Notes under the pieces: generated by a model
Databases searched by the model: none
Seen by the model: only the letters and a program-made list of their open reading frames with translations
What the model was told of the DNA's origin: nothing
Origin: Deltaproteobacteria bacterium
GTDB lineage: Bacteria; Bdellovibrionota; UBA1018; UBA923
Direction of reading: 5' to 3'
Assembly: GCA_016194725.1 (NCBI GenBank)
Contig: JACQAW010000170.1
Coordinates: 1 to 34,395, forward strand
DNA length: 34,395 nt
In this document: piece after piece, positions 7,690 to 32,398 of the stretch
How positions within the stretch are numbered: position 1 is the first letter of the stretch
Layout: every line of letters starts with the position of its first letter
Position numbers and translations under genes: made by a program

Positions 7690-7706
7690 TGCAAGTTTGG
7701 TGCGCA
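7690..7706 (-). promoter_or_regulatory. sigma54-like promoter for CoA hydrolase/transferase
   Basis: TGCGCAC-CAAAC-TTGCA (-24 CG variant), 39 nt from box 7746. Confidence 0.5.
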
Positions 7707-7745
7707 CGCCGCGGGGGCGGCAGAAACCGGGATAAGATTCAAAAT

Positions 7746-7781
7746 GAGACAAAGCCTGCACCAGACGTGACAAGTTGTCTC
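7746..7781. promoter_or_regulatory. Tandem enhancer boxes
   Basis: GAGACA-AAG-CCTGCA 7746-7760 (half-site) and GTGACA-AGT-TGTCTC 7767-7781. Confidence 0.7.
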
Positions 7782-7821
7782 ACGGGCATTGGAAAAAAAT
7801 CCGTAACTTCCATGACTTCTG

Positions 7822-7838
7822 CTGGCATCAAGTTTGCT
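7822..7838 (+). promoter_or_regulatory. sigma54 promoter
   Basis: CTGGCAT-CAAGT-TTGCT, 40 nt from box. Confidence 0.75.
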
Positions 7839-7850
7839 CATTAGACCGGT

Positions 7851-8339
7851 ATGAACAAACAATCACCAGCACAGTATTTGAACTTGGGTAGCAAGGTCAC
7901 ATTTTACGTCGTCGCGAGTCGTACGGAAGCCGTGTTCTTTTCGGTGGGCGACGAACAGGCGTTTCGATTCGTTGAACGGCTCTCGGACGAAAAGGGTGCT
8001 CTTCACGAGAGCGAACTCGTTTCGGACAGACCGGGCAGAGGGCTGTCAAGCGCAGGTAATGGCGTCGTTCGTCATGCCGTTGGGCATGGGGAGACGCACC
8101 GCGAACAGCTTGCAAAGAAGTTTGCAGCTCGAATTGCGGCGGCGCTGGATACGGCGCGCGCGCAAAAGCGCTTTACTGAAGTCGTACTTGCAGCCGAGCC
8201 ACGCTTTCTCGGCCTATTGAGGGAGGCGCTTGGATTGGAAATTCGTGCTTTGGTGAAACATGAAATTCCCCGTGAGTACGTCAAGTGTTCAGATGGCGAG
8301 GTTCGCGCCCGTATTCTGAAGGCGATCGAGAAAGAGTGA
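7851..8339 (+). CDS. Host-attachment family protein (bacterial aeRF1-like, baeRF)
   Basis: YVVASRTEAVFF, ELVSDRPGR, KFAARIAAALD, VLAAEPRFLGLLR. Confidence 0.85.
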   Translation: MNKQSPAQYLNLGSKVTFYVVASRTEAVFFSVGDEQAFRFVERLSDEKGALHESELVSDRPGRGLSSAGNGVVRHAVGHGETHREQLAKKFAARIAAALDTARAQKRFTEVVLAAEPRFLGLLREALGLEIRALVKHEIPREYVKCSDGEVRARILKAIEKE

Positions 8340-8358
8340 TTTTTCCGGGTGCCTGAGA

Positions 8359-8955
8359 TCATTTACCCAGGTAAACCACGCAGCGAATCGCGATGCGGTC
8401 GTCGGATCTGAGTCCGCCCATCATGGCAGTGAGCGGTACCAGGCCAAATGTGGTCTGGGCGATCTGGATATTGGCCTCGTAGGTATTCGCCCCTGTCTTC
8501 TTGAAGCGAATGTACTGCTCCACTGCCCGGCCGTGTAACGTGAGCAAGCCCTTGGCAAGAATCGAACTGCCATCGCGCTGCACGGAAACATCATTGACCT
8601 GATATCGAATCCACGGAAAGTCATCGCCTTGAAGCAACTGAGAGCGAATCTTCTGTTTGATCCGGCTCTTGTCCGCCTCTGAAATGTCTGGAGAAACGAC
8701 CTCAAGCCCGTTCACGTCGATTTCAGCCTCGATGCGAGCGCCTGCCGGGCAGGATTCCTCGGGCGTGACAGTGACGACCAGCTGCTGCGCGAGAATAACT
8801 GGCGCTTTGGCCAGTTTCGCCAAGGGGCCGCTGTTGCTGGGATGAAGCTCAATATAGACCTGTCGCTCCGAGAAGCAGAGTTTCCGTCGCGGCAGATTAA
8901 GCGCGGTAAAGAAGTCACTTTCCATTGTGTTCTCTTCCAGTCGAATCGGCTTCAT
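8359..8955 (-). CDS. YceI-like (lipid/polyisoprenoid-binding fold) protein
   Basis: LLQGDDFPWIRY, AKGLLTLHG, QTTFGLVPLTAMMGGLRSDD; start ATG 8955 after SD AAGGAG; no signal peptide. Confidence 0.72.
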   Translation of the reverse strand: MKPIRLEENTMESDFFTALNLPRRKLCFSERQVYIELHPSNSGPLAKLAKAPVILAQQLVVTVTPEESCPAGARIEAEIDVNGLEVVSPDISEADKSRIKQKIRSQLLQGDDFPWIRYQVNDVSVQRDGSSILAKGLLTLHGRAVEQYIRFKKTGANTYEANIQIAQTTFGLVPLTAMMGGLRSDDRIAIRCVVYLGK

Positions 8956-9009
8956 GCTTACTCCTTTGAGTGTTGAATCCACACGGGACATTCCGCTTGT
9001 CTGACTATT

Positions 9010-9026
9010 AGCAGGCTCCGTGCCAT
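9010..9026 (-). promoter_or_regulatory. sigma54 promoter for YceI-like gene
   Basis: ATGGCAC-GGAGC-CTGCT, 40 nt from box 9067. Confidence 0.72.
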
Positions 9027-9066
9027 GCCGGCCAGTGGCTGGAAATCGGGCTACGAGGTCCAATGT

Positions 9067-9103
9067 GGGACAGATTGGCTCAAGCCGTGCGCGCTGTTGT
9101 CTC
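9067..9103. promoter_or_regulatory. Tandem enhancer boxes
   Basis: GGGACA-GAT-TGGCTC 9067-9081 and GCGCGC-TGT-TGTCTC 9089-9103. Confidence 0.7.
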
Positions 9104-9142: not shown

Positions 9143-9159
9143 CTGGAACGCCAGTTGCA
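9143..9159 (+). promoter_or_regulatory. sigma54 promoter
   Basis: CTGGAAC-GCCAG-TTGCA, 39 nt from box. Confidence 0.7.
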
Positions 9160-9203
9160 ATTTCATTGGCTGACGGCAAGGTCGTCAGCGACGAGGTGAA
9201 GCC

Positions 9204-9410
9204 ATGAGGGCATTTTGGCCGATTTTCATCATTCTTGGAGTGGCCAGCCGAATGCAAAGAGGACTAAACCCAAAGTTCTATCGGGCCGTTCTGGACGACC
9301 GCGCGCAGAATGTCGGTGCTTGTCAGGATTCCGATGATTCGGTGCTCGGAATCCACGATGGGAATGGCGTGAATCCTATTGGCAAGCATAGCTGCGCGCC
9401 CTGCCGTTGA
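9204..9410 (+). other. Small ORF or 5' remnant of an exported-protein gene
   Basis: Own sigma54 promoter, SD GAGGTG and signal-like start MRAFWPIFIILGVAS, but after about 20 codons it runs antisense through the CBS fragment. Confidence 0.4.
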
Positions 9411-9429
9411 TGGAGTAAAGAAGCGGCAT
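9264..9429 (-). pseudogene. CBS-domain gene with large internal deletion/frameshift
   Basis: ATG 9429 gives MPLLYSINGR; the other frame gives the last CBS half MLANRIHAIPIVDSEHRIIGILTSTDILRAVVQNGPIELWV; the first CBS domain is missing. Confidence 0.65.
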
Positions 9430-9441
9430 CTGACGAATTCC

Positions 9442-9951
9442 CTAAAAAATAAATCCATCCATGCGATGGCCCGCGTTCTCGAGAATTCCCTGAAGAGTCC
9501 AGCGTGCGGGCGTCTTGGGATCTCCCAAGAGGTCGATGAGAACTTTCATCAGATCGTCCGTCGTGACGATGCCTACGGTTGCACGGCCATTTGTTACCAA
9601 GAGGGCCGATACCTTTTCCTGGAGCAAGCGCTCGGCAACCAATCGGATGTCCGAATCCTGCTCGATGGTCAGAACCGGCCAGCCCATGTAGTCGCGAACT
9701 CTCGCTTCGGGATCGAATTCGATGCTTTCCGATGAAGCCGGGCTCGGTGGCTCATGCTTGATCTCGGAAATCATGGCCCGCTGTACGTCGCGGTCGGAAA
9801 GCATCCCTACGATTTCACCGGTATCGTCGCATACCGGAAGATGCCTGAGTTTCCGCTTTCGCATGCGTTTGCACGCGGTTTCCATATTCTCATTGAAGTT
9901 TATCGTGACCAGTTTCTTGCTCATGCTTTCGCGCGCCAGTTTCTTTGTCAT
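9442..9951 (-). CDS. CBS-domain pair protein
   Basis: MRKRKLRHLPVCD...VGMLSDRDV; VGIVTTDDLM; start ATG 9951 with SD GGAGAGG. Confidence 0.9.
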   Translation of the reverse strand: MTKKLARESMSKKLVTINFNENMETACKRMRKRKLRHLPVCDDTGEIVGMLSDRDVQRAMISEIKHEPPSPASSESIEFDPEARVRDYMGWPVLTIEQDSDIRLVAERLLQEKVSALLVTNGRATVGIVTTDDLMKVLIDLLGDPKTPARWTLQGILENAGHRMDGFIF

Positions 9952-9980
9952 GGATTGATCCTCTCCCTGCCTTACTGTTA

Positions 9981-9997
9981 CGCAAGATGGATGCCAT
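9981..9997 (-). promoter_or_regulatory. sigma54 promoter for CBS genes
   Basis: ATGGCAT-CCATC-TTGCG, 39 nt from box 10037. Confidence 0.75.
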
Positions 9998-10036
9998 TTA
10001 TTCAAGGCTTGACTTGCCAGCTATCCGACTCGATTT

Positions 10037-10073
10037 GGGCCGTTTCGTCTCAGCGGCAGCGACTTTGGGGCAC
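10037..10073. promoter_or_regulatory. Tandem enhancer boxes
   Basis: GGGCCG-TTT-CGTCTC 10037-10051 and degenerate GCGACT-TTG-GGGCAC 10059-10073. Confidence 0.55.
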
Positions 10074-10081
10074 GTTACCTC

Positions 10082-10852
10082 TTATAACTTGCGATATACG
10101 TCAAGGACGCGATTAACCGCTTTACCGCTCATGGCGCGTACGTGGACAAGGTACGGTCCTGCCTTGAGCTGGCCAAGCCTGATTTCGTATCGAAATTCAG
10201 TTCGCTCGTGGCGGCACGGCTGGCTTCGGTCGCGTTCGACAATGGGCATGACGACAAAAACATCATTCTGCCTCTCCAGGCGTACCGGCTCTTGCAGATG
10301 CTCGCACGAGAAGTAGAGTGTCCCCTGGATGATAATCTTGATCGACTCGTCATCGAGCAGGATCTTATCCGAAAGAACATCGCTCACCGAGGCGTAGGGG
10401 TAGTCATCGATATCCGCGGTTTCCGCGGCCGCCACGCCGAAGTCGCGAGTTCCGATATTTTTAGTTTCCTGGTCGCGCAGGAATTCGATTTTGTACTTTC
10501 CGGCGTCCAGCTGCCCAAGCGAGACTTCCGTCTCATAGGGGCTCGTCAAATCAGGATCGAGGTCCCCGTTTCCGCAGATGCCTGTTGTTCTCAGCCACGC
10601 ATATTGATGAACGCGCAGGGTAGGACCTTTCTTTTCTATCTTGGTTTCGCCCAAGGTATAGCAGATATGCGGTAGCTCCCCTTTGACCACCATGACAATA
10701 TGGTCATTGTCGTCATATCCGTGCGCCGGTACGAACACGGCACTGACATTGACTTCCGTCGCCGCATCTTGTGCCAGTGCTTTGGTTGAAGAAAAAGACA
10801 GTGCGGTACTTAGAATCCCAAAGCTCAGTGCGATCCATACTTTCTTATTCAT
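10082..10852 (-). CDS. Exported two-repeat beta-sandwich-like hypothetical protein (GYDDND motif)
   Basis: Signal peptide from ATG 10852 (SD GGGGGA); two internal repeats each with a Cys pair; paralog of 12220-12954. Confidence 0.8.
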   Translation of the reverse strand: MNKKVWIALSFGILSTALSFSSTKALAQDAATEVNVSAVFVPAHGYDDNDHIVMVVKGELPHICYTLGETKIEKKGPTLRVHQYAWLRTTGICGNGDLDPDLTSPYETEVSLGQLDAGKYKIEFLRDQETKNIGTRDFGVAAAETADIDDYPYASVSDVLSDKILLDDESIKIIIQGTLYFSCEHLQEPVRLERQNDVFVVMPIVERDRSQPCRHERTEFRYEIRLGQLKAGPYLVHVRAMSGKAVNRVLDVYRKL

Positions 10853-10877
10853 GATTCCCCCGTTTGCCTGGGCAATT

Positions 10878-10894
10878 AGCAATCGATGTGCCAA
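10878..10894 (-). promoter_or_regulatory. sigma54 promoter
   Basis: TTGGCAC-ATCGA-TTGCT (consensus), 42 nt from box 10937. Confidence 0.8.
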
Positions 10895-10936
10895 ACGCAG
10901 TTCCAGCGGCGGTTCGGGTTAGAGAAAATTCTCCAT

Positions 10937-10973
10937 GAGACGGAATAGCTCGTGCCGAGGTTCGATTTGTCCC
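10937..10973. promoter_or_regulatory. Tandem enhancer boxes
   Basis: GAGACG-GAA-TAGCTC 10937-10951 and GGTTCG-ATT-TGTCCC 10959-10973. Confidence 0.65.
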
Positions 10974-11014
10974 GAAAAGGCGGCGCGGTTCTCTTGCTGC
11001 GGCCGGGAAATTTC

Positions 11015-11031
11015 CTGGAATACCTATTGCA
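11015..11031 (+). promoter_or_regulatory. sigma54 promoter
   Basis: CTGGAAT-ACCTA-TTGCA, 41 nt from box. Confidence 0.7.
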
Positions 11032-11064
11032 CAGTGCTCCATCCAGGAAAGTGAGGAACTTAAA

Positions 11065-11541
11065 ATGAGAAATGAAAAAATAGCGACGGTGTTGTTGGTT
11101 GGAAGCGTATTCGTGTTTCAGGGTTGTGCGCATGGTGGGCTGGATAAACGTCTCGATGCGAAGTTGTCGGGAGAAAATACCGTTAAGGCACGAGCAGACT
11201 TACAGGCCGAGGCAGGTCAACTGATTGAAGCGGCGCCAGGGTTGTCCGCAGACCAGCGTTCGAATCTCACAGCACTTCGTGAGACAGTCCGCACGCAGAC
11301 CGATGCGATTCGGGAGCGGTCATTGAAACTTCGTTCGGTGCTCATAAAGGATCTCATGTCGGCAAGTTACGACGAGGACGAAGTGGAGCTTGTAAAAGAG
11401 AGGATTAAAAACCTCGAAGATCAAAGGCTGTCGGCTCTGTTCAATGCGGTCGAGCGTGCCAATGCGATTCTTGGACGCCAGGCTTCGGCGAATCAGCAGA
11501 TAGTTCATGATTTTTTTGAACACGCAGGGCACAGCAACTAG
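11065..11541 (+). CDS. Helical lipoprotein (hypothetical, Spy/CpxP/ZraP-like pattern)
   Basis: Lipobox FQGC; LSADQRSNL; paralog of the next gene. Confidence 0.78.
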   Translation: MRNEKIATVLLVGSVFVFQGCAHGGLDKRLDAKLSGENTVKARADLQAEAGQLIEAAPGLSADQRSNLTALRETVRTQTDAIRERSLKLRSVLIKDLMSASYDEDEVELVKERIKNLEDQRLSALFNAVERANAILGRQASANQQIVHDFFEHAGHSN

Positions 11542-11549
11542 CACTGGGA

Positions 11550-12041
11550 ATGGGTATGAAAAAAATAATAATTTCTGTTTTAATTGCGGCAGGCGTCCAA
11601 GGCTGTGCCCACGGCTCGGAGTTATCAACCGAAGCAAGGCTTGACGAGAAGTTGAGTCAGGAAGCATTGCTTAGAAACGGGGCTGATTTGAAAGCTGAGG
11701 CGAAGCAGCTTCTGGAAAGCTCTTCTCGTCTTACTCCCAGCCAGAGAGCTGAGCTTACCTCGCTGCGAAATTCGACTTCCAGGCAGATGGACAAATTCAA
11801 TTCTGAGTCCCTGAAGTTGCGCGCTGTATTAATCGAGGATGTCCTTGCGTCCTCGTATGATGGTGCCGAGGTCGAATTGCTCAAGAGACGAATGAGAGAT
11901 CTGGAGCATCGTAAGCTTTTGGCTTTCTTTAGATCCATACGGGATGCCAACATCAAGCTTGGGCGCTGGTCGTCGAAGAATGATCGCGTTACGTCCGAAG
12001 TGCTGGATGAAATGACTTTCGACGTTTTTCTGCTCAAATAA
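11550..12041 (+). CDS. Helical lipoprotein (hypothetical), paralog of 11065
   Basis: Lipobox VQGC; LTPSQRAEL, SLKLRAVLI, SYDGAEVELLK match the upstream paralog; start 11550 or 11556. Confidence 0.78.
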   Translation: MGMKKIIISVLIAAGVQGCAHGSELSTEARLDEKLSQEALLRNGADLKAEAKQLLESSSRLTPSQRAELTSLRNSTSRQMDKFNSESLKLRAVLIEDVLASSYDGAEVELLKRRMRDLEHRKLLAFFRSIRDANIKLGRWSSKNDRVTSEVLDEMTFDVFLLK

Positions 12042-12080
12042 GGCCAAAGTCATGCTCAAGCTAAATACCCGGCATCAATT

Positions 12081-12116
12081 GAGACAAAAAATCTCCACGA
12101 AGACTCAATTCTTCTC
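12081..12116. promoter_or_regulatory. Tandem enhancer boxes
   Basis: GAGACA-AAA-AATCTC 12081-12095 and GACTCA-ATT-CTTCTC 12102-12116. Confidence 0.6.
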
Positions 12117-12157
12117 ACCGGATACACGGAGTGAGCCGATCTGTAGGCAAAAGTTGC

Positions 12158-12174
12158 TTGGCACGTCGGCTGCA
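12158..12174 (+). promoter_or_regulatory. sigma54 promoter
   Basis: TTGGCAC-GTCGG-CTGCA, 41 nt from box. Confidence 0.75.
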
Positions 12175-12219
12175 ATGGGTCTTCCCGATTTTAAAAAAAT
12201 TCAAACAGGGGGAAGAGTC

Positions 12220-12954
12220 ATGAATAAAGTTTTGGTGAACTTGGCTATTTTGTTTTCTGTCGTAATCATTTCAGCAAAGGCTGCGACGGCTCAGGATTTT
12301 AAGCCAGTGCTTCTTGTTCAGGAGCCGGAGCATGTGTTTACCCCGATGGGTTTTGACGACAACGATAACGTGCAGATGGTTCTCCATGGCTACTTGTCTG
12401 ATACCTGCCACAAAACGGGTCCTGTCTATACGCGGGTCGACAAAGAGCACAAGACGATCTACGTCCGCAATACGGTGTACTTCTATTCCGGCTGTTGGTG
12501 TGCGGCTGTACTTACGCCTTATCTTCAAACCCTGAATCTGGGACTGCTGGGCGTCGGAAGCTACGATGTTGTCGTGGAGAAGCCGGACGGCACGTTTCAA
12601 AAAATGGCAGCGCTCCCTGTCGCGGTCGCCAAAACACCAAGTCCAGACGATTACCTCTATGCGCCCGTCGATCACCTGCACTTCACCCAACGCCAGGCCC
12701 CGCAGTCGTCTGAGATCACTTTGAGTGGCGTATTCAGAAACAGCTGCATGACGTTGAAAGACGTAAAAGTAACCTATCGACCCAATCATGTCGTCGAAGT
12801 CCAACCCATCGCGGAAATGGACACGACCAATTGCACGATTGACGCCAAGCCCTTCGAAGCAACCGTCAAAATCAATCCTGCCTATCGCGGAACAGCTTTG
12901 ATTCACGTTCGGTCCCTGAACGGCCAGTCCTTGAATCAGGTCGTCGACCTGTAA
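12220..12954 (+). CDS. Exported two-repeat hypothetical protein (GFDDND motif)
   Basis: Signal peptide from ATG 12220 (SD GGGGGA); VFTPMGFDDNDN, DDYLYAPV, LIHVRSLNGQSLN align with 10082-10852. Confidence 0.8.
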   Translation: MNKVLVNLAILFSVVIISAKAATAQDFKPVLLVQEPEHVFTPMGFDDNDNVQMVLHGYLSDTCHKTGPVYTRVDKEHKTIYVRNTVYFYSGCWCAAVLTPYLQTLNLGLLGVGSYDVVVEKPDGTFQKMAALPVAVAKTPSPDDYLYAPVDHLHFTQRQAPQSSEITLSGVFRNSCMTLKDVKVTYRPNHVVEVQPIAEMDTTNCTIDAKPFEATVKINPAYRGTALIHVRSLNGQSLNQVVDL

Positions 12955-12990
12955 GTGGTGATTTTCAGGCGCAGGTTGCGGGCGCCAGGA

Positions 12991-13025
12991 CGTCGCGGTC
13001 AGGGGCAATAGACCTGACCGCGACG
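12991..13025. terminator. Perfect 13-bp hairpin between convergent genes
   Basis: cgtcgcggtcagg-N9-cctgaccgcgacg. Confidence 0.6.
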
Positions 13026-14098
13026 CTACATCCAATAGCTGAAGTAGATCAACGGCCGAAAGAGCAAACGTCTGAGTCGGTGAAGCAGGGTGCTGGTGTC
13101 CTGCCTGATTTTAATCGAAACGCTCAGATCAAGACGGTATTGCTGTGATAAGGTTTGCAGAGTGGCGGGAAGGGTCGTGGCATAGTTTGCCTCGATATCA
13201 TGCAGCGAGCTGCGAAAGTTCAGGTTACCCGACCCCAGCATCGCCCAGCGGTCGATGAGCATGCACTTGGCGTGAAGGAAGCTGGATTGGTATTCGTAGA
13301 TCTGCACGCCGGCGCCTTGAAGTGTCGGAAACAGCAGGGAAGAGATCCAGCCGACAACCGGAACATCGGCGTAGTGATCCAGACGTGATCTTTCGCTGAA
13401 TTGATGCGCGCAATCATGTCATCAAAAAACAGATGCCGAAGCGTTCCTGACGTCTCGGTTCGAATTGGACTATCCGCGATACGCGCTCGTAGCCTTTGGG
13501 TCAGTCTGCGTTTGTGGTCGTTATTCAAGAGCAAATTGATTCGGTCGTACCAGGTCACGCGAAAGGCGAGCTCGAAAGGGAGTGGATCGATTCCCACAAT
13601 GCGTATTCCGGTGTCGCGCCAGGCTTTATCTCCATCGATCGATCGAAGATGACGACTCGAGACGTTGAAGCTTCCTATCCAAATTTCACTTTCGTCAATG
13701 AGGCACATTTTGCGGTGATTTCGATGGTTCAAACGGTTAAAGAAATCACGAAATGGGCCGTGCCTGGCAAGAGGCGTGAAAACCCCGAGTCCCATGAAAC
13801 GCAGGAAAAACCGTGGTACGGGGTGGTAGTAATGAAAGCTCACCCCGGAGTATTTCAGCTCAGCTTCCGAGGCAAAGTCGAGCGAGCCAATACCATCGAT
13901 GAGCAGGCGCACGCTCACACTCACACCTCGCTTCGCGGCTTCGGCTAAGGCGCCAATCATGCGTTTGCCCAGGGGACCGTTCTCGAAAATGTAGCTCTCG
14001 AGATGGATGGAGCGACGGGCCCCTGCGATGGCGGCAAGGATTGCGTCGAAATAGGCGTCGCCGTCGAAAAACAGTTGTTCGGTAAGTTCCTTTTCCAT
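13026..14098 (-). pseudogene. cls: Cardiolipin synthase (PLD family, ClsB-like), interrupted by an internal deletion/frameshift near 13367
   Basis: HKD motifs NHRKMCLIDE and LHAKCMLIDR lie in different frames; WITTP joins directly to an out-of-frame DVPVVGWISS...GVQIYEY. Confidence 0.85.
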
Positions 14099-14101
14099 CT
14101 G

Positions 14102-14848
14102 CTAGTTTCCGCGAAGATGGTGCAATGGACACGATGGCGCCAGAGTAGTGGGCCGGGTCTTCGGTGGACTTAATGCTGAATCGATTAGCGCTGAGGCGTG
14201 CAGACTCAGCGAAAACAATCCCAGTCCGATCATGAGAGCCGCCGAGATCTTCGGGGTAAAACCGCGTATTTTGGTGGTAAACCTATTGAAGAGTGCCGGC
14301 GCGGCGCTCAATGCCGGCACGGTCCCGAGCCAAAACAGGCTCAACGCCGCTGCACCTAAAATAGCGCTCTTCGTGGCGGTGGCGCCGAGGACGAAAGTGT
14401 AAAGCCAGCCGCATGGCAGGAAAGCGGAAAGGGCGCCCAGGGTGAAGACACCAATTGCTGAGCTGCCTCTTAGGGAACGTTGAATTAGGTTTGCTGAAAT
14501 AAGGGAGACAGACTTCGGGAAAAGCAAATGCAGGGGCTTACCGCTCAGGCGCCGCACGCCGACCCCGATAAGAAGAATGCCAAAGGCGGTAGAGGCAACC
14601 CAGGGCAATTGTTTTGAGATCGGTGCGTTAAGGATGGAGTTTCCGAGGGCCCCGGCTATGGCGCCGAGGCTTGCGTAACTCAATAGGCGTCCCAGATGAT
14701 AGAGGCCAAGGCTCTTGGTGTCTTTGACGAAGCTGATGACGAGGCCGCCGCACATGCCGACGCAATGCGCGCTGCCCAGAAGGCTGGCAACCAGTATTCC
14801 GCTCGGCAAAATGGCCTGTAAGATTGGGTCAGAGATAGGGGCCGACAA
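14102..14848 (-). CDS. DsbD_2/TauE-SafE-like membrane protein of cbb3 clusters
   Basis: GSAHCVGMCGG, YHLGRLLSY, FLPCGWLY, FWLGTVP; multiple TM segments. Confidence 0.88.
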   Translation of the reverse strand: MSAPISDPILQAILPSGILVASLLGSAHCVGMCGGLVISFVKDTKSLGLYHLGRLLSYASLGAIAGALGNSILNAPISKQLPWVASTAFGILLIGVGVRRLSGKPLHLLFPKSVSLISANLIQRSLRGSSAIGVFTLGALSAFLPCGWLYTFVLGATATKSAILGAAALSLFWLGTVPALSAAPALFNRFTTKIRGFTPKISAALMIGLGLFSLSLHASALIDSALSPPKTRPTTLAPSCPLHHLRGN

Positions 14849-16244: not shown

Positions 16245-16247
16245 GGC

Positions 16248-16814: not shown

Positions 16815-16983
16815 GACGGTCTTCTTCTTCAGCGAGCGGCAGACGCTCCATTCTTTTGTAGAGCTCGGAGTTTGCTTTCATGAAGACTCGGATAAACATC
16901 GTCACGAATACGGAAAGGAAGATCAGCATCGCGATGCACGTGAGCCAGGTCATCGGAAAGTGGCAAAGTGCTTGAGCGTTCAT
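16804..16983 (-). CDS. ccoQ: cbb3-type oxidase subunit CcoQ
   Basis: 59 aa, one TM, ends MERLPLAEE; ATG overlaps the TGA of the shifted ccoO frame. Confidence 0.8.
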   Translation of the reverse strand: MNAQALCHFPMTWLTCIAMLIFLSVFVTMFIRVFMKANSELYKRMERLPLAEEEDRHER

Positions 16984-21782: not shown

Positions 21783-21799
21783 TTGGCACGAGAATTTCA
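21783..21799 (+). promoter_or_regulatory. sigma54-like promoter for HK2
   Basis: TTGGCAC-GAGAA-TTTCA (-12 TC variant), 29 nt from box. Confidence 0.55.
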
Positions 21800-21811
21800 T
21801 GGATATAGGAT

Positions 21812-24834: not shown

Positions 24835-24846
24835 GAGTGCTCCTTT

Positions 24847-24881
24847 GGGACAATATGTCTCGCAGCGGGACATTTTTACCA
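24847..24881. promoter_or_regulatory. Tandem boxes in the leader of the response regulator gene
   Basis: GGGACA-ATA-TGTCTC 24847-24861 and GGGACA-TTT-TTACCA 24867-24881, between promoter and SD. Confidence 0.7.
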
Positions 24882-24929
24882 CATTTGACCCCCTGACTGT
24901 AGGAATTCTTGGTGGTTTCTCCTCTATAC

Positions 24930-24946
24930 AGCAGGGAACGTGCCAA
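24930..24946 (-). promoter_or_regulatory. sigma54 promoter upstream of the response regulator
   Basis: TTGGCAC-GTTCC-CTGCT. Confidence 0.7.
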
Positions 24947-24960
24947 CGCCCTTCCAGGTT

Positions 24961-25965: not shown

Positions 25966-25978
25966 TAACAAATTGCAT

Positions 25979-25995
25979 TACAAGTTGCGTGCCGA
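25979..25995 (-). promoter_or_regulatory. sigma54-like promoter for ldhA
   Basis: TCGGCAC-GCAAC-TTGTA (-12 GT variant), 31 nt from box 26027. Confidence 0.55.
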
Positions 25996-26026
25996 GGCGA
26001 TTTAAGCGAGGGGCGAAAACCGTTTC

Positions 26027-26062
26027 GAGACAATTTGAGTGCCGGGCGGGCTTTTTTGTCTC
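26027..26062. promoter_or_regulatory. Tandem enhancer boxes
   Basis: GAGACA-ATT-TGAGTG 26027-26041 and GGGCTT-TTT-TGTCTC 26048-26062. Confidence 0.68.
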
Positions 26063-26103
26063 GTCTGGCGGCGGGCACAAACAGGTCTGATGCCCGCAAA
26101 TGG

Positions 26104-26120
26104 CTGGCCCGCTGGTTGCA
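26104..26120 (+). promoter_or_regulatory. sigma54 promoter
   Basis: CTGGCCC-GCTGG-TTGCA, 41 nt from box. Confidence 0.72.
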
Positions 26121-26132
26121 CTATCAGCGATT

Positions 26133-27515
26133 ATGGCCCCCTCAATTCAATTTTTAGGCGCAGCCGGCACCGTTACAGGCTCCAAATTCCTTTTTAGGAC
26201 AGAAACACAGAAGATACTCGTCGACTGCGGGCTTTTTCAAGGGGTGAAAGAACTTCGCCTTCAAAATTGGGAAAAACTTCCCATTGAAGCCTCAGCCATC
26301 GACGCCGTGATTTTAACTCATGCCCATCTCGACCACACCGGCTACCTGCCGCTTCTGGTCCGGAACGGGTTCAAAGGAAAGATCTACTGTACGGCCCCGA
26401 CGCGGGAGCTCTCCAAAATCATTCTGAACGATAGCGCGCACATTCAGGAAGAGGATGCCGAATATGCGAATAGGTTGGGTTTTTCAAAACATTCTCCTGC
26501 AATGCCGCTTTATACGACTTCGGATGTTGCTCATACCTTGAAGCTGTTTATCTCGGTAGCTGGGGATAAATGGGTAAAAATCGCGAAAGACGTCAAATTT
26601 CGGTTATCTCCGAGCGGGCACATTCTCGGGTCCGCCTTCGTCGAGCTGAATCATTCTGGAATGCGGGTGGTCTTCAGCGGCGATCTGGGAAGAAAAAAAC
26701 CATTGATGCTGAATCCCCCGACGCGGTTGACCACCGCGGACTATCTTGTCATCGAATCGACTTATGGCGATCGCGTTCACTCGCCGGAGTCGCCGATGAA
26801 CGTGCTCAAGCGGGTGATCAACGAGACCGTGGCTCGCAAGGGGCATCTCATCATACCCAGCTTTGCGGTAGGCAGGGTGCAGGATGTCTTGTATCTCATC
26901 AGCAAGTTAAAAAGACAAAAGCTCATCCCCAACATCCCGGTGTATCTGGATAGCCCGATGGGGATTCACGCCACTGAGGTGCTCCTGGATTACCCAGAGT
27001 GGCATAAACTCGGCGCAAAAGAAATTGAAGCTTTCTGCCAGGACGCCATCATGGTTCGAAGTTATCAAGATTCAAACGGATTGGCCCGCGCCAGGAAGAG
27101 CACGATCGTGGTTGCTGGCAGCGGGATGTTGACCGGTGGGCGGGTGCTCCATCATCTCGAAACTCGGCTTTCAGATTCACGAAACACAATCCTGCTCGTA
27201 GGGTTCCAGGCTGCCGGTACGCGCGGCCGTTTGCTGCGTGATGGCATTCCCGAACTGAAGATGTACGGAAAGTACGTCCCCGTAAAAGCACGAATAGAAG
27301 AGCTTTCGTCGCTTTCGGCGCACGCCGACCAGTCTGAGATCATCGAATGGCTGAGAGGCTTTCGATCGGCGCCGAAAACGACCTTCATCGTTCACGGCGA
27401 GCCGCAGGCTGCCGATGCATTGCGAGTGCGGATTCGAGATTCTTTGAACTGGTTTGCCGAGGTCCCAGCTCATTTGGAAGTGAAAGAATTAAACCTCAAA
27501 ACGCAAGACGAATAA
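26133..27515 (+). CDS. MBL-fold beta-CASP metallo-hydrolase (RNA-processing type)
   Basis: FLGAAGTVTGS, THAHLDH, GHILGS, FSGDLG, ESTYG, LSAHADQ, VHGE; likely start ATG 26133. Confidence 0.92.
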   Translation: MAPSIQFLGAAGTVTGSKFLFRTETQKILVDCGLFQGVKELRLQNWEKLPIEASAIDAVILTHAHLDHTGYLPLLVRNGFKGKIYCTAPTRELSKIILNDSAHIQEEDAEYANRLGFSKHSPAMPLYTTSDVAHTLKLFISVAGDKWVKIAKDVKFRLSPSGHILGSAFVELNHSGMRVVFSGDLGRKKPLMLNPPTRLTTADYLVIESTYGDRVHSPESPMNVLKRVINETVARKGHLIIPSFAVGRVQDVLYLISKLKRQKLIPNIPVYLDSPMGIHATEVLLDYPEWHKLGAKEIEAFCQDAIMVRSYQDSNGLARARKSTIVVAGSGMLTGGRVLHHLETRLSDSRNTILLVGFQAAGTRGRLLRDGIPELKMYGKYVPVKARIEELSSLSAHADQSEIIEWLRGFRSAPKTTFIVHGEPQAADALRVRIRDSLNWFAEVPAHLEVKELNLKTQDE

Positions 27516-27526
27516 AAGGAGATGTC

Positions 27527-27907
27527 ATGGCTTCATATGTGATTTGGATGGATTCGAAAGAAGGAAAAGTATTTGATCTTTTGCCGGAAGGAACAAAAGT
27601 CAGGCACCTGCATACGCATGGCCACAAATACAAGCCACAGCCTGGCGGTGACCACAATGAGGCGCATCAGCACGGTCTTGATGGATTTTTCAAGCAGCTC
27701 GCCGATTCCATCAAAGATGCCAAAGAAGTGATCGTTCTTGGGCCGTCCGAGGCGAAAGTGCATTTCAAAAGCTATCTTGAAAAGCACTTCGCCCATACTC
27801 TTGCCAAAAAGATTGTGGCAGTTGAAACCGTTGATCACCCAAGCGACAATCAGATTCTTGCGCAGGCTCGAAAGTTCTTCAAGGCCTACGATGCGTTCCA
27901 GCAGTAG
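27527..27907 (+). CDS. Small aeRF1-domain-like (baeRF) protein
   Basis: VIWMDSKEGKVF...FFKQLADSIKDAKEVIVLGPSEAK...VETVDHPSDNQILAQARKFF; SD AAGGAG. Confidence 0.82.
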   Translation: MASYVIWMDSKEGKVFDLLPEGTKVRHLHTHGHKYKPQPGGDHNEAHQHGLDGFFKQLADSIKDAKEVIVLGPSEAKVHFKSYLEKHFAHTLAKKIVAVETVDHPSDNQILAQARKFFKAYDAFQQ

Positions 27908-28721
27908 CCCCCCGGTAAGGCACATCCTATGGAGTGTTTCTCCAAGGACTGAAATCGACGTGCTATTGCGCTCGATATCGGCGCTAGGGGCCTTCGCACG
28001 CGCGCATGAGGCCGTGATTCAGCCGGTTTTTGTGCATAACCTGAATGAAGGTGGAATCGATGAGGCTGAACGCGAGTTTGGAAAGGCGATAGGTAGATTC
28101 AGTGAGCCGCTTTTCATAAGGCCCAAGGTCATTTCTTGCGCCGGCTCGTCAGTGAACGGCGCCGTCGATGCTCTTTGCGATTACGCTGCGTTGTCCGCTA
28201 GCGACGTTATCGGTGTCAGCACCCACGCGCGGGCTGGCCTCTCGCGAATGGTGCTTGGCAGTTTTGCAGAAACTTTGATTCTGAGATCCAAAGTGCCGGT
28301 TCTTGTGGTGAATCCTCACGATCTCTGGCGGGAAGAGCGGGTGGGGCGAATTCTTGTGGCTAGCGACCTTGATGCGGAGTCCTTTGGCTTCTTCAAGCGC
28401 GTGGCTTCGGTTGCCAGTCGAATGGAGTCCTCACTGCTCATTTATTCAAAAACCGACAAAGCCCAACATCTTGCACGAGCTAAAGTGGCGGGATTATGGG
28501 CTCAGGAGGTGGCGCAGGCTTTTGGAGTCGCTGCTGAAATTATGATTGAGACGGGCAGTGAAGAAGTTTCTTCCGCCATTATCCGGCACGCTTCAGTGTC
28601 CAAGTGCGGCATGATTGCGCTTCAGACCCGATCGGGGGCGTTGAAAGCTGCCTTGCACGGTAGCATCGCGCGCGCCCTGGCCCGCTCGGCACCGTGCCCC
28701 TTATGGATTGAGCGAGCCTGA
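27891..28721 (+). CDS. Tandem universal stress protein
   Basis: DVIGVSTHARAGLSRMVLGSFAETLI; ILVASDL; LHGSIARALARSAPCP; likely start ATG 27891. Confidence 0.87.
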   Translation: MRSSSSPPVRHILWSVSPRTEIDVLLRSISALGAFARAHEAVIQPVFVHNLNEGGIDEAEREFGKAIGRFSEPLFIRPKVISCAGSSVNGAVDALCDYAALSASDVIGVSTHARAGLSRMVLGSFAETLILRSKVPVLVVNPHDLWREERVGRILVASDLDAESFGFFKRVASVASRMESSLLIYSKTDKAQHLARAKVAGLWAQEVAQAFGVAAEIMIETGSEEVSSAIIRHASVSKCGMIALQTRSGALKAALHGSIARALARSAPCPLWIERA

Positions 28722-28724
28722 AGC

Positions 28725-29726
28725 TTAATTCGTTTTTATTTTGTGGATAGCGACCTTCGAGTGAAGCTTGCGTATGAGTGCGTAATGGCCGAGCGAAGTC
28801 CCTTCTGTTGCAGCCGTGGCAGCACCGGCGGCAATACCCCAGCGGAAAACGTCCGAGAGCTGTTTCGGTGTCGCCTGCTCGATGTCCTCTGGCCGGGCCA
28901 GCTTCCAGGATGCGAGCCTCGCTGCTATCGCTCCAACCATCGAATCACCAGCCCCCACTGTTCCCCTGGCCTTGATTCGCGGGGCCCGCGCCATCCAAGT
29001 TTCTTGATTCACGCAGAAAAGCGCCCCTCGATCTGCCAGCGATACGCACACGATCGCCGCCCTTCGAGACAGCTGGTGCGCGGCGGCGGCGATTGCCGAG
29101 ATGGAACGAAGGTTTTTCCCAATCAGCGTTTCAAGCTCTGTCTGATTCGGTTTGATCAGAAGAATTCTGGCTGACGGTGACCGGATAATGGCCTTGAGAG
29201 CAGGTGCTGGAACATCAACGACGACCCCGAGCCCTTGTTTCGACACCGAATCGATGAGGTCGATGTAAAAGCGCGGTGAACAGCCGGCCGGAAGGCTGCC
29301 GCCAATGAGTACGATGCCCGGAGCTCGGAATTTGGATATCGCGGATAGGAGCAAGCGAATTTCCTGCCGGCTGATGTGGGGGCCCGGGAAGGTCAAACGT
29401 GTCTGCTTGTGGTCATGGTCGTTCGTGACGGTGACATTGGTGCGGGTGGTTCCTCGAATTTTCGTGAACTGTTCCTCAAGCCCCTCGCTCTTCAAAAGCG
29501 CCTGAAGCTGTGAGCCTGTGCCGCCACCCAGAAAGCCGAGTAGCATGGGGCGGCCACCCAGCCTTTTTGCAATACGGGCCGCGTTGATCGCATTGCCGCC
29601 GGGATCGAGCCGTGCTCGTTCCACGTAGTTCTTCTCGTCGGCGACAATTCGGTTCACGTGTCCTGACAGGTCAAGCGCTGGGTTTGGGGTTATGGCGTAG
29701 ATTCTCGTTTGTCCTTCTCTGTTCAT
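28725..29726 (-). CDS. pfkB: PfkB/1-phosphofructokinase family sugar kinase
   Basis: ITPNPALD, PGGNAINAAR, TRTNVT, GGSLP, KPNQTEL, TVGAGDSMV. Confidence 0.88.
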   Translation of the reverse strand: MNREGQTRIYAITPNPALDLSGHVNRIVADEKNYVERARLDPGGNAINAARIAKRLGGRPMLLGFLGGGTGSQLQALLKSEGLEEQFTKIRGTTRTNVTVTNDHDHKQTRLTFPGPHISRQEIRLLLSAISKFRAPGIVLIGGSLPAGCSPRFYIDLIDSVSKQGLGVVVDVPAPALKAIIRSPSARILLIKPNQTELETLIGKNLRSISAIAAAAHQLSRRAAIVCVSLADRGALFCVNQETWMARAPRIKARGTVGAGDSMVGAIAARLASWKLARPEDIEQATPKQLSDVFRWGIAAGAATAATEGTSLGHYALIRKLHSKVAIHKIKTN

Positions 29727-29739
29727 GCATGCTCAATAA

Positions 29740-29756
29740 TGCATTCCAGATGCCAA
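29740..29756 (-). promoter_or_regulatory. sigma54 promoter for pfkB
   Basis: TTGGCAT-CTGGA-ATGCA, 29 nt from box 29786. Confidence 0.68.
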
Positions 29757-29785
29757 GATACCGGGGCTTTGAAGTTCGAGGGCAC

Positions 29786-29822
29786 GGGACACCAAGTGTC
29801 GTTTCGTGAGCAAATTTGTCTC
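29786..29822. promoter_or_regulatory. Tandem enhancer boxes
   Basis: GGGACA-CCA-AGTGTC 29786-29800 (half-site) and GAGCAA-ATT-TGTCTC 29808-29822. Confidence 0.68.
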
Positions 29823-29862
29823 AAGCCACCGTCGACCCGCGCGATTTCCGCCAGTAAATGCC

Positions 29863-29879
29863 TTGGCACGCTCGCTGCA
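29863..29879 (+). promoter_or_regulatory. sigma54 promoter
   Basis: TTGGCAC-GCTCG-CTGCA, 40 nt from box. Confidence 0.75.
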
Positions 29880-29930
29880 ACAATGCCTAAACGAGACTGG
29901 CGACTTATTCAAAAAACAGGAGGAATCAAG

Positions 29931-30461
29931 ATGAACAATCTGACAACGAAGAATTTTTGGAATCCATGGGCCGATGAGTCGGCGACTTTTCAGCGTGCCG
30001 TCGAGCGCTTGTTTGGCGACTCGATGTTATCGTTAAAGGCGAATGCGAAGATGCCAACGTTCAATCCCATGTGCGATGTCGAGGAGTCGGACGGGCACTA
30101 CCTGTTCAGCTTCGATGTGCCAGGTATCGGCAAAGACGATATCAAGGTGGAGCTTCTCGAAAACCAACTTGTGGTGTCCGGTGAACGGAAGTACGAGCAT
30201 TCTGAAAAGAAACATGCCCATCGCCTCAATGAGCGCTACTACGGCAGCTTTCAAAGGGCGTTCACGCTTCCCTCGGTCATTGATGCCGAGCGCGTCGAAG
30301 CTTCCTACGACAACGGCGTCCTTCGAATCGCCATTCCCAAAGCCGAAACCACGAGAAATCGGACGGTCAAGATAGGCGAAGGGAAAAGCGGATTTTTCGC
30401 CAAGATCCTGAGCCGGGGCGAAGGCGACAAGACGGAAACCGGAAAAAAGTTATCAGCATGA
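29931..30461 (+). CDS. Hsp20/alpha-crystallin small heat-shock protein
   Basis: DVPGIGKDDI, ERYYGSFQRAFTLP, ASYDNGVLRIAIPK; SD AGGAGG before ATG 29931. Confidence 0.93.
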   Translation: MNNLTTKNFWNPWADESATFQRAVERLFGDSMLSLKANAKMPTFNPMCDVEESDGHYLFSFDVPGIGKDDIKVELLENQLVVSGERKYEHSEKKHAHRLNERYYGSFQRAFTLPSVIDAERVEASYDNGVLRIAIPKAETTRNRTVKIGEGKSGFFAKILSRGEGDKTETGKKLSA

Positions 30462-30489
30462 GCGGGCATTGCCCTTCAAAGGAGATCAC

Positions 30490-30903
30490 ATGAAAGCAAT
30501 GCCAAGAATTCAAAAAGTCATGACCGCGATGCCGCACACCATTGGAAGCGACATTCCGATCAAAAAGGCGATGGAAATGATGCGGGAGTTCCGCATTCGC
30601 CATCTGCCGGTTCAGAGGGCCGGGCAGCTCATCGGTGTCTTGAGCGATCGAGACATCAAACTTGCCCGCTCATTTCAAGGGCCAGGCGAGCTGACCGTCG
30701 ATGACGTAATGACCCCCGATCCCTACGTCGTTGCTCCAGACGCCTCGCTGGACGAAGTCGCGTTCAATATGGCCGAACACAAATACGGCTGCGCTATCGT
30801 CCGGCAGTCCAACGGAAAGGTCGTTGGTATTTTCACGGACAACGACGCCCTCAGAAGTTTAGGTGAGACGCTCCGCAGCCACTACAAGACCGTGGCGGCT
30901 TGA
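30490..30903 (+). CDS. CBS-domain pair protein
   Basis: IRHLPV...GVLSDRDI; VDDVMT; VVGIFTDNDAL; SD AAGGAG. Confidence 0.9.
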   Translation: MKAMPRIQKVMTAMPHTIGSDIPIKKAMEMMREFRIRHLPVQRAGQLIGVLSDRDIKLARSFQGPGELTVDDVMTPDPYVVAPDASLDEVAFNMAEHKYGCAIVRQSNGKVVGIFTDNDALRSLGETLRSHYKTVAA

Positions 30904-30990
30904 CCAGCGCAAAGAGAACCGCAGGGCGCACCGCCACGATGGTTATCGTGGAGGACGTCTTGCGGTTCAGTTTTGATGGAAGGCCAGGAT

Positions 30991-31440
30991 ATGAACACTT
31001 TAGCGGCAAAGACAGGTGATCAAGCAGGACAAAAAGAGACAAAGACCGTCAATTTGTCCCATGGGTTGACCAAGGGGCGGCTTCTGGTGATCGACGACGA
31101 TGTTGGGATGCGGTCTCTTTTGAACGATGTGTTGTGCACCTCGGGCTACACCGTGACGAGCTTTTCGGACGCGATCGGAGCGTTGAAAATCGTTACGGCC
31201 AACGATCAGAATATTGACGCCATAATTTGCGATCTGAATATGCCCAGAATCAGCGGATTTGATTTCCTGGACATGCTGCAAAGGATGAAATCGAAGATAC
31301 CTCTGATACTCATTACCGCATTTGGAACGAAGAAGACCGAGCAGGAAGCGCAGAAAAAAGGCGCATTTGGCTACCTCTCAAAACCGTTCCAGCTTTCGGA
31401 AATCAGCGAGCTGATTCAAAAGGCAGTGAATCCGCTCTGA
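30991..31440 (+). CDS. Single-domain response regulator (receiver)
   Basis: LVIDDD, ICDLNMP, ITAFG, KPF; no output domain. Confidence 0.9.
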   Translation: MNTLAAKTGDQAGQKETKTVNLSHGLTKGRLLVIDDDVGMRSLLNDVLCTSGYTVTSFSDAIGALKIVTANDQNIDAIICDLNMPRISGFDFLDMLQRMKSKIPLILITAFGTKKTEQEAQKKGAFGYLSKPFQLSEISELIQKAVNPL

Positions 31441-31842
31441 CTACAGGCGACTGGCCTGAGACGGGATATAGGGCACGAATCTCAGGATCTCGAAATTCTT
31501 GACGCTGATTTCGAAGCGGAGCTCGGCTCCGACATACGACCCGGCATGGGGGGACAGCTCCCCCTGGAACTTGGGAAGCGGGTCCTGGAGGTTTACGGCC
31601 TGCAGCTCGATGGTCTGGCCCGTGCCGGAATCCCGAAACAGGGTAATAGCCATGCTCCTGGGCGCGAGCTTCTTGGTGTTGAGCGTATAGACCTCGACGT
31701 GGTTCGCAGCGGGATCGATTTTGACCTCAAACTGGTGCGTGTTGTTCTGAACGACTTTTCCGCCGTGGGGACCCGGCTTTTCTTCAGCGTGCCCAAGTTG
31801 AGAGGCAATCAATAAGAGCGCGGCGGCAACTTGAATTTTCAT
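31441..31842 (-). CDS. Exported hypothetical protein with GPHGG motif
   Basis: Signal peptide followed by EEKPGPHGG; start overlaps the stop of the upstream gene. Confidence 0.7.
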   Translation of the reverse strand: MKIQVAAALLLIASQLGHAEEKPGPHGGKVVQNNTHQFEVKIDPAANHVEVYTLNTKKLAPRSMAITLFRDSGTGQTIELQAVNLQDPLPKFQGELSPHAGSYVGAELRFEISVKNFEILRFVPYIPSQASRL

Positions 31843-32210
31843 AAAGTGCGGTTTCCCTTCCGGATGGTTTTAGTGTGTTCGGCTTCGCTGAGGTCGCTGT
31901 GCAGTTTCTTGCCATCTGTCAGGGCGAGCTTGCCGTCTTTTTCAAATATGAGGCGGATGGCTTGCATATCCGTCTCGAGGGGCAGCTCATAGACCATCAA
32001 TGTTCCCGAGCTTACTGCAACCAGTTTTGTCCGAACGTCTTCTTTTTTGAAGTATTCAGCCGTGAAGGTGTCGCGAATCCAGGTATTGCCCCGCACTTTG
32101 GCCACTCCTTGTTCGTAGGCATCGACTACGCCAAGAAAAAACCGTGAGTGGTCATTCTCAAAGAGTCGCCGATGGACGATCAGAACCTTCGAACCTTCTT
32201 CCAGGATCAT
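31839..32210 (-). CDS. Conserved-looking hypothetical protein
   Basis: 123 aa directly downstream of a sigma54 promoter; GSKVLIVHRRLFENDHSRFFLGVV. Confidence 0.7.
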   Translation of the reverse strand: MILEEGSKVLIVHRRLFENDHSRFFLGVVDAYEQGVAKVRGNTWIRDTFTAEYFKKEDVRTKLVAVSSGTLMVYELPLETDMQAIRLIFEKDGKLALTDGKKLHSDLSEAEHTKTIRKGNRTL

Positions 32211-32238
32211 GATGTTGCCCCTTCTTCAGGCTCAGAAT

Positions 32239-32255
32239 TGCAACCACTGGGCCAA
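32239..32255 (-). promoter_or_regulatory. sigma54 promoter
   Basis: TTGGCCC-AGTGG-TTGCA, 41 nt from box 32297. Confidence 0.72.
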
Positions 32256-32296
32256 GCTGAAATGAGGGTGGGGTTTGGGGTGGACCAGTTGATCAC

Positions 32297-32342
32297 GAGC
32301 AAAAAAGACTCGTTTCCGCTGTGGGGCGAGACATTGTGTCTC
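32297..32342. promoter_or_regulatory. Enhancer boxes including the perfect palindrome
   Basis: GAGCAA-AAA-AGACTC 32297-32311 and GAGACA-TTG-TGTCTC 32328-32342. Confidence 0.75.
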
Positions 32343-32381
32343 AAGAGGTGCTTTGCAAGTGCCTGAATACGCTGCGAAATA

Positions 32382-32398
32382 TTGGCATGAGCGCTGCA
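32382..32398 (+). promoter_or_regulatory. sigma54 promoter
   Basis: TTGGCAT-GAGCG-CTGCA, 39 nt from box. Confidence 0.75.

Follow-up and report, generated by a model that had tools for sequence, protein, structure and literature searches.

The stretch of DNA analyzed here, referred to as the window, is the complete 34,395-nt contig JACQAW010000170.1 (C141) of a 3.97-Mb genome (G000; 491 contigs, 73% complete) from an uncultured, predatory-type member of the Bdellovibrionota. Window positions 24000-33900 are contained in three DNA sequencing runs, all from one study and labeled as groundwater metagenome, and no RNA run was listed for them. The window carries seven intergenic regions in which two outward-facing sigma-54-type promoters flank a pair of palindromic sequences, predicted here to be sites of a sigma-54 activator. 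Genes predicted to be driven by these and a few single promoters of the same kind include those for acetyl-CoA hydrolase, PfkB kinase, D-2-hydroxyacid dehydrogenase, a P-type ATPase followed by a fused ccoNO, ccoP and fixG, Hsp20, Usp and CBS-domain proteins, a PAS histidine kinase, a single REC protein, a Host_attach/baeRF12 protein, a beta-CASP nuclease and several hypothetical, partly secreted proteins.

Seven divergent promoter pairs had been described in a sequence-only reading of this DNA, and sigma-54-type elements facing outward were found at every one of them, both on reading the regions and in a consensus scan. The regions span 140-160 bp, the distance from T to T of the TGGCAC elements is 134-159 bp, and the predicted starts within a pair lie ~170 bp apart. 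Scanning for TGGCAC-N5-TTGC with at most one mismatch returned 14 matches in the window against 2.67 expected, and none of 100 shuffles reached 14. Eight of these matches are pair members, three are other box-associated elements (9982(-), 12159(+) and 24931(-)), and three are without a box (1711(+), 4663(+) and 5795(-)). The other six pair members each carry two mismatches to the consensus. Both the GG and the GC core, ten bases apart in the consensus, are present in 11 of the 14 pair members. In the following list of the pair promoters (16-mers), the gap counts the nucleotides between the last base of the proximal GTCYC and the T of TGGCAC, and TSS denotes the transcription start site.

7690-7705, minus strand: sigma-54-type promoter, GCGCAC-N5-TTGCA, without GG; acetyl-CoA hydrolase gene; gap 40 nt; ATG at predicted TSS+5
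7823-7838, plus strand: sigma-54 promoter; Host_attach/baeRF12 gene; gap 41 nt; ATG at predicted TSS+3
9010-9025, minus strand: sigma-54 promoter; hypothetical gene with its true start near 8955; gap 41 nt
9144-9159, plus strand: sigma-54 promoter; gap 40 nt; downstream only a 68-aa open reading frame (ORF), reaching the 3' end of the convergent CBS gene
10878-10893, minus strand: sigma-54 promoter; 256-aa signal-peptide protein; gap 43 nt
11016-11031, plus strand: sigma-54 promoter, TGGAAT..TTGCA; genes 11065-12041; gap 42 nt
21649-21664, minus strand: sigma-54 promoter; operon of P-type ATPase, ccoNO, ccoP and fixG; gap 41 nt; ATG at predicted TSS+5
21784-21799, plus strand: sigma-54-type promoter, TGGCAC..TTTCA, without GC; PAS histidine kinase; gap 30 nt; GTG at predicted TSS+3
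25979-25994, minus strand: sigma-54-type promoter, CGGCAC..TTGTA, without GC; D-2-hydroxyacid dehydrogenase gene; gap 32 nt; ATG at predicted TSS+4
26105-26120, plus strand: sigma-54 promoter; beta-CASP RNase-like gene; gap 42 nt; ATG at predicted TSS+3
29740-29755, minus strand: sigma-54 promoter; PfkB kinase gene; gap 30 nt; ATG at predicted TSS+4
29864-29879, plus strand: sigma-54 promoter; Hsp20, CBS and REC genes; gap 41 nt
32239-32254, minus strand: sigma-54 promoter; two hypothetical genes (31441-32210); gap 42 nt to a weak site
32383-32398, plus strand: sigma-54 promoter; 385-aa hypothetical gene and Usp; gap 40 nt

Between the promoters of every region, G[AG]GAC and GTC[CT]C face each other, with a start-to-start distance of 31-32 bp in five regions. 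Each of these elements forms the outer half of an imperfect 15-bp palindrome, two per region, with the consensus GAGACAAAWTGKCTC (14 sites, outer half first), in which the outer half-site matches at a mean of 5.5 of 6 positions and the inner half-site at 3.7 of 6. The site centers of regions 1 to 7 are 21, 22, 22, 33, 21, 22 and 31 bp apart, which corresponds to two or three helical turns (21-22 bp in five of the seven regions, 31-33 bp in the other two). The site proximal to 32239(-) is degenerate (GAGCAAAAAAGACTC; gap 42 nt). A central enhancer shared by both directions, as had been proposed, would be the natural reading of this arrangement, and the predicted enhancer regions are as follows.

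7746-7781: region 1; sites 7746-7760 and 7767-7781, centers 21 bp apart
9067-9103: region 2; sites 9067-9081 and 9089-9103, centers 22 bp apart
10937-10973: region 3; sites 10937-10951 and 10959-10973, centers 22 bp apart
21706-21753: region 4; sites 21706-21720 and 21739-21753, centers 33 bp apart
26027-26062: region 5; sites 26027-26041 and 26048-26062, centers 21 bp apart
29786-29822: region 6; sites 29786-29800 and 29808-29822, centers 22 bp apart
32297-32342: region 7; weak site 32297-32311 and perfect palindrome 32328-32342, centers 31 bp apart; both blocks kept in a different genus

By the GTCYC rule, the gaps of the 14 pair promoters are 40-43 nt in ten cases, 30-32 nt in three (21784(+), 25979(-) and 29740(-)) and 73 nt in one (32239(-)). 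With the degenerate site of 32239(-) counted, 11 of the 14 fall at 40-43 nt and three at 30-32 nt. Two single promoters add to the long class, which brings the counts to 13 long and 3 short cases:

12081-12174, plus strand: single promoter 12159-12174 with sites 12081-12095 and 12102-12116, centers 21 bp apart; gap 42 nt
9981-10051, minus strand: single promoter 9981-9996 with one site at 10037-10051; CBS gene; gap 40 nt

The two gap classes had thus been seen correctly in the sequence-only reading, whereas its counts of 14 long and 3 short cases were not reproduced; its values of 39-42 and 29-31 nt differ from ours because a 17-mer was used there. With GG set at -25/-24, the center of the proximal site lies at ~-75 and that of the distal site at ~-96 from the predicted start, and the distance from enhancer to -12 element is 63-84 bp.

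In a strict genome-wide scan (622 sigma-54-like sites, TGTCYC at most 130 nt upstream), 10 of the 26 TGTCYC occurrences lay at a gap of 39-42 nt (eight) or 30 nt (two), while the other 16 were spread over 14 gap values. Nine of these ten fall in the window, and one (gap 39) belongs to an alternative TGGAAC 16-mer at 21773 that overlaps 21784(+). In a looser scan (3738 sites, box match of at least 9 of 12), peaks were obtained at 39-43 (14 occurrences), 62-64 (10), 73-74 (7), 52 (3) and 29-30 nt (4), where the background is near one per bin; the peaks are spaced by single helical turns or reflect the distal site. Contig C117 carries an eighth divergent pair, whose gaps, as read from the sequence, are 52-53 nt in either direction. 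Its plus-strand promoter faces two CBS-domain genes, the first listed start being ~185 nt downstream. Together the gap classes of ~30, 41 and 52 nt are whole helical-turn steps, and with site centers 21-22 or 31-33 bp apart they bear out the earlier claim of a fixed, helically quantized spacing. The spacing is far from random genome-wide. Two further loci are candidate regulon members: on contig C89 (about 5327), a promoter with two boxes and a gap of 30 nt precedes the gene for a 472-aa protein without family match, and on contig C250 (about 87) boxes are found at gaps of 41 and 62 nt.

The architecture was also tabulated in related genomes, two of the same genus (G001 and G002) and two of the same family (G007 and G008), in which coding DNA is ~70-79% identical and gene order differs. 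It is kept in all four, with gaps of 40, 41, 41, 42, 42, 43 and 44 nt, 32 nt once and ~53 nt once (counted from the sequences). The orthologue of region 7 in G008, which belongs to another genus, is 160 bp long as it is here and has kept both sites and both promoters, while its left spacer has diverged with offsetting indels. Furthermore, the surroundings of 13 orthologous activator genes (184 kb, 33 sigma-54-like sites) were compared with those of 67 non-orthologous ones (1.02 Mb, 151 sites). Strong palindromes, defined as matching at least 10 of 12 positions, occurred within 130 nt upstream of a sigma-54-like site five times near orthologous activators (gaps 29, 40, 42, 70 and 71) and not once near the non-orthologous activators. 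Clear conservation of the motif is confined to the family and to the neighborhood of orthologous activators.

The spacers themselves are periodic. With the promoters as the reference point of the alignment, A+T content rises and falls along the 41-nt spacers every ~10-10.5 bp (p = 0.005-0.007 for the 13 spacers of the window, rotation test). Eleven spacers of other genomes show the same period with a phase within ~5 degrees (p <= 0.0004, projection on the window phase), and 89 other sigma-54-like sites of the genome show little periodicity; 13 random ones match the amplitude of the window set in 0.3% of draws. The integration host factor (IHF) consensus WATCAANNNNTTR, which represents E. coli only, was not enriched in the spacers (mean best mismatch 3.14 versus 3.27 in shuffled sequences, P = 0.29) and was matched with at most one mismatch in 1 of 14. 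Four HU/IHF-family proteins are encoded in the genome; they are not assignable to IHF because all three of those scored fall below the cut-offs.

At 7 of the 17 box-associated promoters, the first start codon of the long ORF lies at predicted TSS+3 to +5 without a ribosome-binding site (start codons at 7675, 7851, 21634, 21812, 25965, 26134 and 29726). This class includes all three short-gap and all three noncanonical promoters. The remaining 10 have leaders of 15-85 nt, mostly with a GGAG-type ribosome-binding site. Among the beta-CASP orthologues, those of G002 and G008 have leaders with ribosome-binding sites and that of G001 is apparently leaderless. To judge from these positions, the seven promoters probably give rise to leaderless mRNAs from sigma-54 promoters.

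Genes for sigma-54 and for a candidate activator are present. An rpoN gene is located on contig C231 (TIGR02395 match, 459 bits, above cut-off), and the window itself encodes a candidate activator with the Walker A motif GESGTGKE, a GSFTGA loop and an HTH_8 domain. Named activator families in NCBIfam gave no match at cut-off for this regulator, ZraR scoring 301 bits against a cut-off of 760. Its nearest relatives are 64-78% identical, and the next matches fall to 51%. Most metagenome-assembled genomes carrying these nearest activators are labeled Bdellovibrionota, Oligoflexia, Bdellovibrionales or Bacteriovoracaceae, the rest Lysobacteraceae, Proteobacteria or Deltaproteobacteria. The features of the regulator locus and the two PAS kinase genes are listed below.

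23510-24882, minus strand: candidate activator gene; REC (24433-24834) and AAA+/HTH_8 (23510-24463) in different frames
24930-24945, minus strand: the activator's own sigma-54 promoter
24847-24861: box GAGACATATTGTCCC, downstream of the activator promoter, ~66 nt past the predicted start; with an extra GTCCC half-site within 24847-24872, before the start codon
21812-22939, plus strand: PAS histidine kinase, adjoining the activator gene
5158-6366, minus strand: second PAS kinase

The same order is found at locus L008, where a box at 9376 follows the activator's promoter. A box in this position could point to autoregulation through a downstream enhancer, or to repression. The PAS kinase at 21812-22939 is likely the cognate sensor of the activator.

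Taken together, we consider it probable, at roughly 75%, that a single response regulator of the NtrC family (REC-AAA+-HTH_8) has the greater part of its regulon in the window, the best candidate being the one encoded at 23510-24882, and that this regulon is a hypoxia- or dormancy-like gene set. In the proposed mechanism, activator dimers would bind the two imperfect palindromes in the middle of each intergenic region, two turns apart (three in two of the seven regions), and phosphorylation by a PAS histidine kinase would allow the dimers to nucleate an AAA+ hexamer. From site centers at ~-75 and ~-96, this hexamer would reach the sigma-54 closed complex on either side by means of a tight DNA loop. 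The 41-nt spacer, or one a turn shorter or longer, would hold activator and polymerase on a fixed helical face, and its phased ~10.5-bp A+T periodicity would probably bend it correctly without a recognizable IHF site. The genes predicted to be driven would suggest a response to low oxygen or energy stress, similar to dormancy.

Several observations weigh against this interpretation. In the activator gene, the REC and AAA+ parts are out of frame (24371-24470), and the REC-AAA+ linker is shorter by ~37 residues than in the L007 and L008 orthologues; if the frame break is real, the regulator is inactive here. There are 27 Sigma54_activat matches in the genome, 21 of them with an E-value of at most 1e-38, so another activator could bind and the sites are only provisionally assigned to the local one. 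Among 30 relatives of the same order, GTCTC at gaps of 39-44 nt is only modestly enriched in a strict pattern scan (18 of 46 matches outside the genome studied here, by hand count), alongside many hits at control level. Three of the 14 promoters lack one canonical core: 7690(-) has CG for GG, 21784(+) TTTC for TTGC and 25979(-) TTGT for TTGC. The periodicity test on the window spacers was run after the pattern had been seen, several of the relatives' promoters are orthologous and the periodicity sets are therefore not fully independent, and plus- and minus-strand subsets of spacers are ~70 degrees apart in phase.

The frame break could stem from faulty assembly, or it could be a genuine deletion that inactivates the gene. 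Run contigs (X1-X3) cover 9200-25000 at ~5x depth in short pieces, none of them shown bridging 24371-24480, and many of the loose contig ends near 24371-24480 stem from AAA+ genes of other organisms. A CBS-pair gene at 9264-10005 (minus strand) is likewise split, into overlapping ORFs at 9264-9458 and 9442-10005; as a second frame break in the contig, it favors sequence error at low coverage.

Another of the many sigma-54 activators of the genome might occupy the boxes in place of the cluster-encoded one, and the broken appearance of the local gene and the 27 Sigma54_activat matches in a genome that is 73% complete would fit this. We regard it as rather unlikely, given that five strong boxes of the same geometry lie upstream of the 33 sites near orthologues of the local activator and none upstream of the 151 near others, and that a box lies just past that activator's own sigma-54 promoter both here and in L008. 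The palindromes might also serve a repressor or some other factor as operators. In that case the -24/-12 elements would be activated from elsewhere or be in part nonfunctional, and some pairs would act in one direction only. The three promoters without a GG or GC core are in line with this view, as is the 68-aa ORF that is all that follows 9144(+). Nevertheless, a palindrome pair at -75 and -96, separated by two or three turns, is the classic layout for an activator, the three weak promoters keep a correct gap (40, 30 and 32 nt) together with a start codon at predicted TSS+3 to +5, and the 16-mer of 9144(+) is identical in G007, where a ribosome-binding site comes after it. Operators of this kind therefore seem quite improbable.

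The constant spacing could also be a matter of descent from one duplicated promoter cassette and not of selection on geometry, in keeping with the location of all units inside 34 kb and with their common layout. The pairwise identity of the 13 long-class spacers, however, is 26.4%, compared with 25.0 +/- 0.8% after shuffling, and the candidate was rejected on that ground. Gap classes that differ by whole helical turns (30, 41 and 52 nt), the total length that the region 7 orthologue of another genus has kept despite the indels in its left spacer, and gaps of 42 and 51 nt in the zraP-zraS region of E. coli also speak against it, and we consider the duplication very improbable. A reading that goes further than the regulon proposed above is a hard-wired, sequence-encoded tight loop. 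The spacer, fixed at 41 nt or longer or shorter by whole turns, would carry an A+T/G+C alternation of 10.5 bp that is locked in phase and has been conserved throughout a Bdellovibrionota family, and would bend by ~180 degrees over ~40 bp without IHF. A hexamer nucleated on two dimers could then serve two mirror-image promoters, about half of which would start 2-4 nt from the start codon (leaderless). In this full form the proposal is conceivable, yet we hold it to be doubtful.

The layout is a large, clean case of a known regulatory design that is best known from E. coli zraP-zraSR. Measured in E. coli MG1655, the zraP-zraS region has 15-bp palindromes (GAGTAAAAATGACTC and GAGTCATTTTTACTC) with centers 31 bp apart and gaps of 42 nt (zraP, TGGCAC) and 51 nt (zraS, TGGCAT). 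These inverted repeats are reportedly the ZraR sites (Leonhartsberger 2001). ZraR, an NtrC-family response regulator, controls the divergent sigma-54 promoters of zraP and zraSR (PMC4987338). Outward-facing promoters with tandem palindromes between them are shared with the seven window regions and the pair on C117, and region 7 likewise has a 46-bp central element. The E. coli case differs in comprising just one locus, whose genes concern metal and envelope stress, whereas at least eight units are predicted to form one regulon here; in its half-site (GAGTA/GAGTC versus GAGACA); and in site distance, which is mostly 21-22 bp here. The E. coli hycA-hypA region is similar in that back-to-back sigma-54 promoters have FhlA sites between them, its TGGCAC elements measuring 114 bp from T to T, tighter than the 134-159 bp found here. 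FhlA, however, is not a response regulator, and the spacer is A+T rich. IHF has been reported to act in the hycA-hypA spacer.

With respect to gene content, a similar set of Usp, Hsp20, CBS, PfkB, P-type ATPase and eRF1-like proteins is induced by hypoxia in the mycobacterial DosR regulon and the Burkholderia lxa locus. These systems depend on a LuxR-type regulator at sigma-70-type promoters, unlike the sigma-54 promoters with enhancers described here. A closer functional analogue, the nearest described, appears to be NmpR of Myxococcus xanthus, the regulator of an oxygen-utilization regulon. NmpR (of NmpRSTU) is a self-regulating, hypoxia-linked NtrC-like regulator that binds two 5-N5-5 palindromes upstream of sigma-54 promoters; among its targets are a USP, a CBS-domain gene, and cbb3 oxidase genes preceded by one for a P-type ATPase (PMC11841059). 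All of these target types and a box at the regulator's own promoter have counterparts in the window, and the order from P-type ATPase to cbb3 genes is that of the NmpR-controlled operon. NmpR differs (PMC11841059) in the distance between sites (14-15 bp versus 6-7 bp here), in its site (GCGCA-N5-TGCGC, not matched here, where the site is GAGACA-N3-TGTCTC) and in its sensor, a protoglobin kinase, whereas the kinases here carry PAS domains; a set of two-way promoters is not among the features it describes.

A review-type statement gives 100-140 bp as the usual distance from enhancer to -12 element (PMC2709558), and in Desulfovibrio vulgaris the largest share of sigma-54 promoters lies at most 100 nt from the closest activator site (PMC4641369). 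The 63-84 bp found here are compact and within known practice. A dependence of close enhancers on the face of the helix, and curved DNA in place of IHF, have long been known, as reported by Buck (1987), Minchin (1989), Perez-Martin (1994) and Carmona (1997). The sequence-only reading had gone on to propose a rigid short-range activation geometry in which one activator assembly would fire both promoters. A new or unusually rigid mechanism is not supported, as the sites lie at ~-75 and ~-96, E. coli zraP-zraS has the same numbers and D. vulgaris promoters are also close. The earlier interpretation is thus partly supported, being right on phasing and the shared enhancer and overstated on novelty.

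Some observations concern single features of the window. A single 751-aa ORF (16804-19059, minus strand; COX1 and FixO) encodes CcoN and CcoO as a fusion, with the P-type ATPase upstream in the operon. The promoter 9144(+) is followed, within 9144-9410, by a short hairpin (CTGACG..CGTCAG) and by the 68-aa ORF, whose sequence overlaps the convergent CBS gene at its 3' end; the region may encode a small membrane protein or give rise to an antisense transcript. At 1711-1726 (plus strand), a good sigma-54-type element (TGGCGCGCCGCTTGCT) precedes a ribosome-binding site and a 519-aa ORF without family match. As there is no GAGACA box upstream, this element is probably under another activator.

Among the papers listed in a literature search, none on a sigma-54 activator regulon in the Bdellovibrionota was found. 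Since the mechanism itself is textbook knowledge, the value of the present case lies in a clean example and in genome annotation, not in a new principle. With ~17 promoters that differ in gap (30, 41 or 52 nt), in site spacing (two classes) and in their nonhomologous spacers, it offers a natural series for the study of face-of-helix effects and sequence-encoded looping, and the phased spacers and probable leaderless transcripts are side features of interest. Overall, the analysis predicts the regulon of a sigma-54 activator in the Bdellovibrionota and suggests that a hypoxia- or dormancy-like gene set, of the kind governed by DosR in mycobacteria and NmpR in Myxococcus, may be under sigma-54 control here.

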